The translations under genes were made by a program, and so were the position numbers. The notes under the pieces were generated by a model, which saw only the letters and a list, made by a program, of their open reading frames with translations, searched no databases and had not been told where the DNA came from. Shown here piece by piece: positions 5,780 to 22,486 of a DNA stretch of 64,000 nt (the first letter of the stretch is position 1; every line of letters begins with the position of its first letter). This DNA comes from Octopus vulgaris (lineage: Eukaryota). The stretch lies in the NCBI GenBank assembly GCA_951406725.2, contig OX597822.1:60016001-60080000 (forward strand), given 5' to 3'.

Positions 5780-5836
5780 ATGCTTCAATCAACCGGTAGA
5801 TTCCTGCTCTGCGCTTTTCTTGCTACAATAGTTTCT
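5780..5836 (+). CDS. Copy A exon 1, signal peptide [19 protein letters not shown]
   Basis: ATG at 5780, hydrophobic stretch, donor GTAAGT at 5837 (phase 0). Joins [10 protein letters not shown] in exon 2, giving a plausible cleavage site after IVA. Conserved at 39009. Confidence 0.8.
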
Positions 5837-20800: not shown

Positions 20801-22486
20801 CAGTGATTAATAAATGCATTTTCCATATTTGATTTGCTCAGTTAATTAACATTTATTCGGATAAATGTTAATTAATGATTATGTGTTCACATGAGTATAT
20901 TTTTTATGCCTTGATAAGTGCAGGAAAAACTGCCAATAACAATTTAAAGCACCCATGTTCGCCTGGGTCAAAGAATCTAAATGATTTCATGTTAGTACCA
21001 AGAGGGTGGGAATTCAACAAACAGAGGAAAAAATATAACATTCTGACTAAGTTTTCTGATAGTGAGAGCTAGTATGTTTTTATTAAAAGGTTTCACTTTC
21101 AAAATACTTTTTACAAAGAATTATCAAGTTAATAATTTTTCTTCAAAACACAAAAAACAGGAAAGAAAAATATATATTCGTTTTGAAATTTCTCAAGTCA
21201 GTTCAGTGAATATGCAAATATATTTTAGTCACTGACTAAGATGATTTAACTCTTCCTCATGCTTTATCGTCATCAGTCGCTCTCACCAAGAGTCCATATG
21301 ATCCTTGCGTGTCTGTATAAGATTCTTTTGTTAAAAATTATGTGCTATAAATCGGTTATATTTCTGTAATGCACAAAACATTTTAACAATCTTTTTATAC
21401 AATTCCTAATATCATTTAATGATAATAATATAATAGGATCTTAATGTTTGACAGGATCTACCTGAGTAAAATAGGAATCAGAAAGGTCCATAGACGAAAA
21501 ATGGTTGAGAAACACTAATCTAAATGAATTGAGATGAGAGTTGACAAAGATGATTTTATTTGGTTTATTTTTGTGGTGGTGGTGGTGGTGGTATTTATAT
21601 TTATTTTAGTGTATAGAACTTACACACCCATTATGCATTATCTTCTGATTAATACACACTTGTACGTGTGTGTGTGTGTGTGAGTGTTTGTGTGTGTGTG
21701 TATGTGCGTGTGTGTGTGCGTGTGTGTGTGAGTTGATGACTAAGCTTCATCCAAGTGTAATGAAGCTGAGTTGTTATGTAGAATTGTTTGTTTTTATTAA
21801 AGAGATAAAAAGGCACCAGTCTCTCTTACGAAATGATTTGGGTTTCAAAAGCAGTTAAAGCAATTCATCATTATTGCTTTAACATCCCCTTTTCCAAGCT
21901 TGCATAGGTCAGGCAGATAGATAAGACCTTGCAGCTGTCAGATTTTCTACAGTTGAATACCTTTTTTGCTGCCAACCCACACCTGTCTCCAAGTAAAAAA
22001 ATATTTCCTGATAGCCAAACATGGTTTTACAGGATACTGGAAATGAATAACACTGCTTCTATGAAAGTGACACTCATGTATAAACAGTCATGCAGTAGCA
22101 AGACCAGGAGACACAATCATGCATGCACACACACACATATATACATGTACATACATGTATGCACATATTCATACATGTATATACACACCCCTCATGTTGC
22201 CAGTCTCATCAATTAAATAAATGTGATCATCGATAAATATTTACTTAATCATCAATTATATATAATTAAAATTCATTTATTTGACAATCTTGTTCATTTT
22301 TTTTCACTAGGCTTCAAATGTCCTGAAACTTCAGGTCTTTTCCCTGATCCACAAAGCTGCAGACATTTTTATCATTGCGACTGGAATATTGCCTACAGAA
22401 AGGATTGCCCTGGAAACTTGCACTTCAACAAAGTCTTGAAAGTGTGTGATTGGCAATACAGAGCCGACTGCAATATTGGAAAATAA
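5780..22486 (+). CDS. Copy A: secreted Delta/Serrate-like protein (signal peptide-C2/MNNL-DSL-8xEGF-chitin-binding CBM14), 10 coding exons, 580 aa
   Basis: Manual splice join(5780..5836,9679..9868,12703..12785,14702..14869,15515..15659,16453..16563,17253..17372,18959..19633,20750..20767,22311..22486) = 1743 nt. All introns are GT-AG, all phases are compatible and there is no internal stop. Nine of the ten exons have counterparts in copy B. Confidence 0.85.
6267..6686 (-). mobile_element. 3' fragment of an RTE-clade LINE
   Basis: [50 protein letters not shown] is typical of an RTE RT C-terminus; short tandem tail (TCACCTTGA)2 and a GC-rich island. Confidence 0.8.
7293..7378 (-). ncRNA. Degenerate minimal hammerhead ribozyme motif (Penelope-like)
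   Basis: Minus strand: CCGAAGA (core U to C), stem II GACTTGTA/TATAAGTC, GAAAC-AAATT-GTT; imperfect stem I AAAACC/GGCTTT. Confidence 0.5.
7878..8302 (-). mobile_element. Full-length tRNA-derived SINE of the type abundant in Octopus genomes
   Basis: Minus-strand head GGAGTGGCTGTGTGGTAAG (A box) ... GGGTTCAGTCCC (B box), internal CA/TA tract and (AAAAGAGTA)-like tail. Fragments at 3326, 6728 and 63370. Confidence 0.85.
8577..8775. repeat. ~200-bp dispersed repeat in microsatellite context; second copy inverted at 44491-44693
   Basis: Shared ACAACAACG(C/T)GAG(G/A)ACGTGGAACAA...GGACGCTCAGGAAA...AAATCGCCAACG core. Confidence 0.75.
9679..9868 (+). CDS. Copy A exon 2, N-terminal part of the C2/MNNL Notch-ligand domain
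   Basis: ttttacAG acceptor and GTAAGT donor. [64 protein letters not shown] matches the Delta N-terminal pattern F.N..GLL.N..C...C.T...VC.......C.YG...T.V.G. Confidence 0.85.
10666..10853 (-). ncRNA. Second hammerhead motif (inverted copy)
   Basis: Minus strand TAAT-CTGAAGA-GTGGCTATATTTA...TAAATACAGTCTC-GAAAC-ACGT-GTC-ATTG; palindromic loop III; stem II partly mismatched. Confidence 0.6.
11193..11296 (+). ncRNA. Minimal type I hammerhead ribozyme motif
   Basis: TAAC-CTGAAGA-GTGGCTAT[loop]ATAGCCAC-GAAAC-ACAT-GTC-GTTA: intact core, 8-bp stem II, 4-bp stem I, GUC cleavage triplet. Confidence 0.7.
12703..12785 (+). CDS. Copy A exon 3, C2/MNNL domain middle part
   Basis: AG and GTAAGA boundaries, phase 1-0. 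[28 protein letters not shown] contains the NPI motif of Delta ligands. Conserved at 46053-46135. Confidence 0.8.
14702..14869 (+). CDS. Copy A exon 4, C-terminal part of the C2/MNNL domain and start of DSL
   Basis: ttttcAG and GTAAGT boundaries, phase 0-0. [56 protein letters not shown] ends like the Delta L.Y..R segment preceding the DSL cysteines. Confidence 0.8.
15515..15659 (+). CDS. Copy A exon 5, DSL domain
   Basis: [48 protein letters not shown] has six Cys in the DSL pattern C..YYG..C...C...F.C...G.K.C..G..G..C. AG/GT boundaries. Confidence 0.9.
16453..16563 (+). CDS. Copy A exon 6, EGF repeat 1
   Basis: [37 protein letters not shown]; 111 nt, phase 1-1, AG/GT boundaries. Confidence 0.9.
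17253..17372 (+). CDS. Copy A exon 7, calcium-binding-type EGF repeat 2
   Basis: [40 protein letters not shown]; 120 nt, phase 1-1; C-x-D-x4-Y-x-C hydroxylation consensus. Confidence 0.9.
17803..18033. mobile_element. Tc1/pogo (Tigger-like) MITE; copies at 52794-53024 and 56333-56563
   Basis: TA-CAGTAATCTCTCGGCATATCGCG ... CGCGATAGTCGAGGTATTACTG-TA terminal inverted repeats with TA target duplication. Confidence 0.75.
18959..19633 (+). CDS. Copy A exon 8, six tandem EGF repeats
   Basis: Lies within ORF 18829..19671. Acceptor AG at 18957-58 (in-frame alternative at 18966-67), donor GTAAGC at 19634. Six 6-Cys EGF units. Confidence 0.92.
20305..20490 (-). mobile_element. SINE-like repeat (second family); copy at 58610-58795
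   Basis: ATCGACCCC...GAAAGGATGAAA...CGACCTCGGC..AATTTGAACTCAGAACGTA; B-box-like GAGTTCAAAT on the minus strand. Related fragments near 4150, 15315 and 15695. Confidence 0.7.
20750..20767 (+). CDS. Copy A putative 18-nt microexon (VPVSQA linker)
   Basis: Branch-like ACTAAT, pyrimidine tract and TTTTGCAG acceptor, then TACCAGTCTCCCAAGCAA, then GTAAGT donor. Phase 1-1 and frame-preserving. Confidence 0.55.
22311..22486 (+). CDS. Copy A terminal exon, chitin-binding peritrophin-A / CBM14 domain
   Basis: [57 protein letters not shown]. Cys spacing C-x12-C-x5-C-x9-C-x12-C-x7-C with the typical aromatic residues. AATAAA overlaps the stop and further AATAAA sites follow near 22760-22825. Confidence 0.9.

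Follow-up and report, generated by a model that had tools for sequence, protein, structure and literature searches.

A canonical Delta protein is defined by a signal peptide, MNNL/C2 and DSL domains, nine or more EGF repeats, and a transmembrane (TM) segment with an intracellular domain, and DSL proteins that carry one or more extra conserved domains beyond this set are termed “DSL-like”, a group that was set aside without analysis (PMC5356439; papers given by PMC number, with the exception of PMC8217771, are cited throughout for the accessible part of their text). DSL proteins without a membrane anchor are also described, namely DSL-1 of C. elegans, which has one EGF repeat (PMC3415683), and mollusc Delta2, an early-terminated Delta1 with conserved architecture that is reported along with an expansion of DSL genes in molluscs (PMC8166818). 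Neither is described in these texts with a chitin-binding domain, and the accessible part of PMC8166818 never mentions chitin. Here we analyse a gene of Octopus vulgaris, located in a 64,000-nucleotide (nt) stretch of contig OX597822.1 (positions 60,016,001 to 60,080,000, forward strand; “the window”), whose predicted product has the domain order of a Notch ligand and ends in a CBM14 (peritrophin-A) domain. Beyond what the initial annotation of the window had noted, the gene belongs to a tandem array of seven copies, and its layout is shared by an abalone protein.

The predicted protein shares with canonical Delta/Serrate/Jagged proteins (DLL1, PDB 4xbm; DLL4, 5mvx; JAG1, 4cbz and 2vj2) the signal peptide, C2/MNNL, six-cysteine DSL and tandem EGF repeats, in the same order, but has no TM segment or tail, no EGF1-2 pair of the DOS type and no matching Notch-contact residues, and carries an additional intron before DSL and the C-terminal CBM14. 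Set against the definition of Delta, it has a signal peptide (by hydropathy), MNNL/C2 (weak in its own exon, seen through alignment of a close relative with DLL1) and DSL; it has eight EGF repeats rather than at least nine, a number that varies in paralogues, and lacks the TM segment and intracellular domain. The product thus lies outside the canonical Delta/Jagged class, and by its CBM14 falls among “DSL-like” proteins, a loose bin and not a clade. Identity with Delta2 can be rejected, given that Delta2 is an early-terminated Delta1 (PMC8166818). From its sequence we lean slightly towards reading the protein as a secreted, disulfide-rich EGF spacer or rod of a chitin-containing extracellular matrix, which would sit with CBM14 on chitin and with its C2-DSL head on a membrane or matrix partner, in a chitin-laying epithelium.

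Gene structure and predicted product

The initial annotation proposed ten exons encoding a 580-amino-acid protein that reads signal peptide, C2/MNNL, DSL, eight EGF repeats, CBM14 and stop, without a TM segment, and this is borne out by splice signals, Pfam and hydropathy, with MNNL remaining below its cut-off. In a model built from the coordinates (Table 1), with the exon 8 acceptor at 18959, ten GT-AG exons of unit 6 of the array join into a single open frame of 580 amino acids whose sole stop is terminal. The alternative in-frame acceptor at 18968 yields 577 amino acids, and the frame is also kept when the 18-nt micro-exon is skipped. The public O. vulgaris model CAI9727913.1 matches the 577-residue version at 570 of 580 aligned positions, with differences only at both exon 8 junctions. 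Because the same exon order is found in seven tandem units, it is beyond chance, and at the sequence level the ten-exon gene with its predicted 580-residue product is confirmed as real and recurring.

Pfam was run exon by exon, with cut-offs of 22.5 bits for MNNL and 24.2 bits for DSL. The DSL exon reaches 47 bits (E 3e-12), the terminal exon 52.5 bits against CBM_14 (PF01607, E 5.5e-14), and EGF repeats number one, one and six in exons 6, 7 and 8. MNNL scores 20.1 bits on exon 2, under the cut-off, and is not detected by Pfam on exon 2 of the oldest copy; it passes in the paralogue P0006 (32.1 bits), and residues 20-215 of the close relative P0002 adjoin MNNL+DSL clusters in an Atlas feature search (0.95, 208 shared features). 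PDB matches of the CBM14 are tachycitin and the CBM14 of a chitinase, and in alignment with tachycitin the six cysteines and a C-terminal CDW are kept. By the usual EGF motifs, an O-fucose consensus is present in four repeats and an O-glucose consensus in three (exons 6-8 of the window; EGF1, 2, 3, 5 and 8). EGF1-2 align better to later EGFs of DLL1 than to EGF1-2 of DLL1.

The 12 highest 19-residue hydropathy windows all begin within residues 1-14, an N-terminal peak from which the signal peptide is predicted on hydropathy and sequence; no TM segment is found by hydropathy in the 580 residues, and the stop directly follows CBM14. In the near-identical public model P0158 the maximum after residue 25 is 0.81. 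Of 32 public Octopus models retrieved, 31 have no 19-residue window above 1.44 from DSL onward, the maximum of 1.75 belonging to P0007, a 184-residue O. bimaculoides model that ends after DSL; true TM segments of related proteins reach 2.9-3.6.

The acceptor of the CBM14 exon is of phase 1; the exon has neither a start nor a signal peptide of its own, and has been duplicated together with the upstream exons seven times. Twenty-five of the 32 public models end in CBM14, and the remaining seven are truncated before it or have the exon in a wrong frame. The linker micro-exon is included, shortened or skipped in RefSeq models of O. sinensis (three variants) and included in O. bimaculoides; linker variants of this kind in RefSeq normally need read support. 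Between 19633 and 27900 there are four frames of at least 25 amino acids behind a phase-1 acceptor, of which the sole hydrophobic one lies 4 kb beyond the stop and recurs in one other unit only, ruling out a conserved downstream TM exon.

Public models of the family bear the names delta-like, jagged-like and fibropellin-like. Whole-protein Pfam scans missed CBM14 in five of eight full-length proteins that carry it, and the architecture has therefore been hidden under these names, which exposes an annotation blind spot. The public models P0001, P0009, P0162 and P0165 contain array annotation errors, in which adjacent units are fused or the CBM14 exon is out of frame. The initial annotation did not recognise the architecture from described proteins; likewise, no description was found in the literature searched, subscription papers being mostly outside its scope, and no paper mentioning any of 12 family-member accessions was found. 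Chitin is not mentioned in the accessible part of PMC10970066, that of PMC11871041 holds nothing relevant, and in PMC8217771 DSL abbreviates a lectin. The protein is a new combination of known modules, predicted in public annotations and unrecognised there.

The DSL domain, related proteins and origin of the architecture

Jagged1 contacts Notch through a DSL face made of F199, R201, R203, D205 and F207 (PMC3415683), and the single change F207A abolishes Notch binding (PMC3888931). Aligned with Jagged1, DLL1 and DLL4, the octopus protein has R, D, P, S and Q at these positions, so none of the five is kept; the same count holds in all seven units, with Arg in place of Phe199, and Asp, Glu or Tyr in place of Arg201. 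The O. vulgaris genome contains 13 DSL matches, three on other contigs (69-71 bits), seven in the array (41-48 bits) and three divergent. The three on other contigs, which are of canonical type (L028, L029 and L030), keep four of the five contact residues each. An intron acceptor precedes the first DSL cysteine by two codons in unit 6 and by 119-125 nt in two canonical-type exons, no acceptor being called for the third. The short EGF1-2 of the DOS type is absent after DSL, where Pfam finds classical EGFs; some ligands lack the DOS motif, and its absence alone is not decisive. The three divergent DSL exons with an intron inside DSL (L038 and L039 at G000:C13, 11.84 and 12.03 Mb, and L040 at G000:C11:67.28 Mb) represent other non-canonical DSL genes.

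With no contact residue kept and no DOS EGF pair, the suggestion in the initial annotation of a matrix-immobilised Notch ligand or decoy is not supported, and a functioning one is a weak reading of this sequence. The residues that grip Notch are gone, making a chitin-matrix protein more likely than a signal.

It had also been proposed that phase-1 exon shuffling replaced the TM segment and tail of a Delta or Jagged protein. The last EGF exon and the CBM14 exon meet in phase 1, which fits module shuffling, and this part of the proposal stands. Direct derivation from a canonical Delta, on the other hand, is rejected as unsupported, given the contact face replaced at five of five positions, the missing DOS pair, the pre-DSL intron, and best C2-DSL scores to non-canonical proteins. 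Outside Octopus, the best pairwise C2-DSL scores are 53, 41, 39 and 37 bits, to proteins of a snail (Bulinus KAH9512826.1), an abalone (Haliotis asinina XP_067684044.1), a mussel (Potamilus KAK3591884.1) and a crinoid (Anneissia XP_033112005.1); canonical rows were partial in this test, so that their lower scores are not comparable. All four have a DOS-less DSL with a divergent loop, and share with the octopus protein C2-DSL followed by classical EGFs, but three of them have a clear TM segment, and none ends in CBM14 in a profile search. The sequences suggest that the parent was most likely a non-canonical, DOS-less DSL-EGF gene that acquired a terminal CBM14 exon in phase 1, with later amplification in Octopus. 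A pair of internal DSL-EGF blocks occurs in membrane proteins of Macrostomum (P0140) and Owenia (P0153), which shows wide shuffling of the C2/DSL-EGF module in spiralians.

The initial annotation called for a search for the architecture across molluscs, and this returned one protein with the same layout, Haliotis rubra XP_046553135.1 (“fibropellin-1-like”, 965 amino acids), which has the order C2-DSL-EGFn-CBM14 with a C2/MNNL-type fold, a single terminal CBM14 and no TM segment, and is the only such protein outside Octopus among the 150 matches listed of 22,672. Its first 185 residues have template modelling scores (TM-scores) of 0.73-0.79 to Delta-like C2-DSL in the Atlas model, and Pfam gives 28 bits for DSL and 48.3 bits for the terminal CBM14. 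This is a single uncharacterised, computationally predicted model, which does not begin with a signal peptide. Identity between its CBM14 and that of octopus is 48%, not above some unrelated CBM14s, and its C2-DSL is very divergent from the octopus one (26 bits). A CDW-x5-KDCP motif is present in seven of eight family CBM14 domains, that of abalone included, and in none of 95 others from nine proteins, although the motif was picked post hoc from the alignment. A CBM14 tree of 55 rows (8 family members and 47 of the 95 others) neither shows nor rejects a clade of octopus and abalone (approximately unbiased test, p-AU 0.46), and a FastTree phylogeny of C2-DSL (18 rows) groups the two at 0.83, as two long branches with which pairwise scores disagree. 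As far as a single abalone model can tell, CBM14 was somewhat more likely than not gained before the gastropod/cephalopod split and inherited by both lineages, with convergence as the alternative. Word-index searches with octopus C2 and DSL retained 8 of 10 and 7 of 86 candidates, every one an Octopus protein, and a CBM14 profile search (13 of 57 candidates) contributed a single further protein, from O. bimaculoides, and no mollusc not already represented. The whole-protein representative search was swamped by EGF repeats and the family range is therefore undersampled; these shallow searches turned up no member in squid, cuttlefish or bivalves.

The seven-copy array and the proposed role

Seven copies of exon 2 and seven close copies of the CBM14 exon alternate at 59.82-60.08 Mb of C9 in the O. 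vulgaris genome, forming seven units on one strand with a shared exon order and the CBM14 exon last in each; the gene described here is unit 6. Apart from a weak exon-1-like match, the 20 kb upstream and the 40 kb downstream showed neither another unit nor a matching exon. Exon 8 ranges across units from about 2 to at least 13 EGF-sized repeats in open frame. The micro-exon measures 18, 18, 18, 15, 16 and 18 nt in units 1-6, a multiple of three in five of them. Exon 8 of unit 3 leaves frame in this assembly, and this and the 16-nt micro-exon of unit 5 may be assembly errors.

Relative to the oldest copy, unit 1, the gene is under purifying selection, with a ratio of non-synonymous to synonymous substitution rates (dN/dS) of 0.36 over 327 codons (C2 0.37, DSL 0.32, EGF1-2 0.54, CBM14 0.17). 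The DSL value implies that this domain binds or folds for something. Between copies, 15 of 16 comparisons of C2 or DSL give dN/dS below 0.55, and since the replaced DSL face is itself conserved across copies (DSL dN/dS 0.32-0.46), the head probably has a partner other than Notch.

From the observed domain content, lack of a TM segment, copy number and selection we infer secretion, chitin binding, a tissue and a partner as follows. The protein would be secreted by a chitin-laying epithelium, such as that of the radula or beak sac, the oesophageal or stomach cuticle, or the sucker cuticle. CBM14, judging by its family, would dock it on chitin fibrils, and the EGF run would act as a spacer; a variable number of EGFs between copies is as expected of a spacer. 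The C2-DSL head may bind a non-Notch partner, be it the apical cell membrane via C2, another matrix protein or its own kind, so that the protein would link cells or matrix proteins to the chitin scaffold. That an EGF rod with caps at its ends can be matrix material has a precedent in octovafibrin, an octopus egg tether, and sea-urchin fibropellins, which are likewise secreted tandem-EGF rods capped by binding domains (PMC10336842). The EGFs of octovafibrin are of the non-calcium type, and the calcium-binding EGF consensus was likewise not found in exons 6-8. Their ends are C-type lectins, or C1s-like and avidin-like domains, in contrast to C2-DSL and CBM14, and no C-type lectin, C1s-like or avidin-like Pfam match was obtained in scans of the present proteins; identity with octovafibrin is ruled out by these end domains, and the likeness is one of analogy only. 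Neither chitin nor DSL is mentioned in the accessible part of PMC10336842.

The molecular make-up of the mollusc radula, beak and other chitinous parts is poorly known, and the family provides a concrete, testable candidate. Should Notch not be touched, it would be a clear case of the C2-DSL head of Notch ligands reused for matrix work; should Notch still be touched, it would be a matrix-held ligand, with a bearing on how Notch is triggered without ligand endocytosis.

Several points weigh against a matrix role. DSL is still under purifying selection, and by sequence alone Notch may yet be its partner. In nematodes, secreted DSL ligands function together with DOS proteins as separate co-ligands. 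The nematode proteins named in PMC3415683 are DSL-1 and OSM-11. An AlphaFold model from a six-sequence alignment is poor (mean predicted local distance difference test score, pLDDT, of 49), and its Foldseek matches, to Notch ligands and Notch EGFs, have TM-scores by query below 0.3 and carry no weight; a second fold, of P0007 as a single sequence without exon 4, is uninformative (mean pLDDT 39.5). Two radula-specific snail genes of mollusc origin that encode EGF and DSL domains, found beside many chitin-binding genes and hes1 and read as possible Notch ligands, are tabulated without CBM14 (PMC5995198). Given that whole-protein Pfam scans overlook CBM14 as often as they do here, this omission does not exclude the same family, and the snail genes, which that study leaves unexplained, are a lead that also counts in favour of a matrix role. 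Finally, recent units have dN/dS near or above one in EGF1-2 and CBM14, which also fits an immune role or redundancy.

Among the other explanations, the protein could be a chitin-tethered Notch modulator, which on nascent chitin would activate or block Notch on adjacent secretory cells, such that the deposition of matrix would influence cell fate in the radula or beak organ by feedback. It would draw on the full C2-DSL-EGF order of Notch ligands, on the activation of a Notch reporter by surface-immobilised Jagged1 fragments (PMC3888931), on the radula-specific hes1 and paired DSL+EGF genes of the snail (PMC5995198), on the Notch-driven formation of chitinous chaetae in Platynereis (PMC5356439), and on the abalone protein, which keeps the equivalents of F199 and R201. 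We regard it as unlikely, however, in view of the contact residues lost in all seven units, the missing DOS pair, the three ligands of canonical type encoded at other places in the genome, and an EGF number that is free to vary among seven copies, which would be unlike a dosage-sensitive ligand.

A secreted lectin of defence or the gut barrier has a similarly small chance, in our estimate. Its CBM14 would sit in chitin-rich mucus or on chitin of prey, fungi or parasites, with the C2 head attaching to damaged membranes or to those of microbes, on the pattern of amphioxus VCBPs, gut-expressed secreted proteins that also combine a recognition head with one C-terminal chitin-binding domain, the head being two Ig V domains of unrelated origin (PMC2632668). 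The tandem expansion, the young mosaic copies with their raised ratios in EGF1-2 and CBM14, the likeness of CBM14 to tachycitin and an immunomodulatory chitinase, and the basic C2 region (isoelectric point 9.1) would all suit such a role. The raised ratios, however, come from few changes, and the one tested, EGF1-2 of unit 6 versus unit 5, with 22 non-synonymous and 3 synonymous changes, is not significant (Fisher p 0.21, approximate site counts); moreover, the C2-DSL head, expected to be the most variable part, is mostly conserved.

A more far-reaching reading seems doubtful to us: that secreted DSL proteins anchored to chitin form an ancient mollusc family, common to cephalopods and gastropods and identical with the snail radula genes, in which chitin has replaced the cell membrane as the support of a Notch-ligand-type head and couples chitin deposition to signalling through Notch or a new receptor in radula and beak organs. 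Least of all do we expect an artefact or minor isoform, with CBM14 from a separate transcript or a main product that ends elsewhere, for instance in a membrane anchor: the seven public models without an in-frame CBM14 and the moderately hydrophobic tail of P0007 would fit it, but the exon with its phase-1 acceptor and no start or signal peptide, its sevenfold co-duplication, the frame-preserving micro-exon between EGF and CBM14 exons, the three linker variants among RefSeq models of two other Octopus species, and the distant place of the only hydrophobic frame of four, found in one other unit, speak strongly against it.

Coordinates and other features of the window

Table 1. Exons of the gene (unit 6) and second copy (unit 7) in the window; positions count from the first nucleotide of the window.
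Feature	Position	Strand	Content and evidence
Exon 1	5780..5836	+	ATG and most of signal peptide, 19 amino acids, phase 0; hydropathy peak; start shared by public models
Exon 2	9679..9868	+	End of signal peptide and first part of C2/MNNL; Pfam MNNL 20.1 bits; 7 genome copies
Exon 3	12703..12785	+	Middle of C2; close relative aligns with DLL1 C2
Exon 4	14702..14869	+	Last strands of C2
Exon 5	15515..15659	+	DSL, six cysteines kept, Notch-contact face replaced (R181, D183, P185, S187, Q189); Pfam, PDB alignments
Exon 6	16453..16563	+	EGF1, classical type, not DOS; Pfam EGF E 2e-7
Exon 7	17253..17372	+	EGF2, classical type; Pfam EGF E 1e-8
Exon 8	18959..19633	+	Six EGF repeats; length varies across array; alternative in-frame acceptor 18968
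Exon 9	20750..20767	+	18-nt linker micro-exon, phase 1-1, optional
Exon 10	22311..22486	+	CBM14 (peritrophin-A) and stop; Pfam CBM_14 E 5.5e-14; PDB matches
Unit 7	39009..60337	+	Same exons; frameshift and stop in exon 2; exons 7-8 duplicated; no micro-exon

An AATAAA overlaps the stop in exon 10, and further AATAAA or ATTAAA signals follow about 274, 334 and 544 nt downstream. A short alternative last exon (window 16605-16700) is opened in intron 6 by an acceptor whose end is at 16604. Matching sequence ends two public models that contain only C2-DSL, O. vulgaris P0001 (a few residues and a stop) and O. bimaculoides P0007 (a moderately hydrophobic tail), and the hydrophobic frame is out of phase in this window. 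A short isoform is possible, or the exon may be due to chance in AT-rich DNA.

Unit 7 is probably a broken gene in this assembly. A degenerate extra copy of exon 1 (window 40735-40791) lies within its intron 2, and the same extra copy is present in unit 3 (G000:C9:59905069), so that the 5' part is shared by units 3 and 7. The units are mosaic, C2 of unit 6 being nearly identical to that of unit 5, and its CBM14 exon and 3' flank to those of unit 2, a pattern suggestive of conversion or unequal crossing-over. Units 6 and 2 agree at 100% over a 220-nt stretch 4 kb downstream.

Transposon remains are also present in the window. As judged from the text of open reading frames, endonuclease- and reverse-transcriptase-like frames of a non-LTR (long terminal repeat) retrotransposon occupy 27952-36000 on the minus strand, with a gag-like frame at 31391-32869, and a mariner-like transposase frame is found at 36429-37490.

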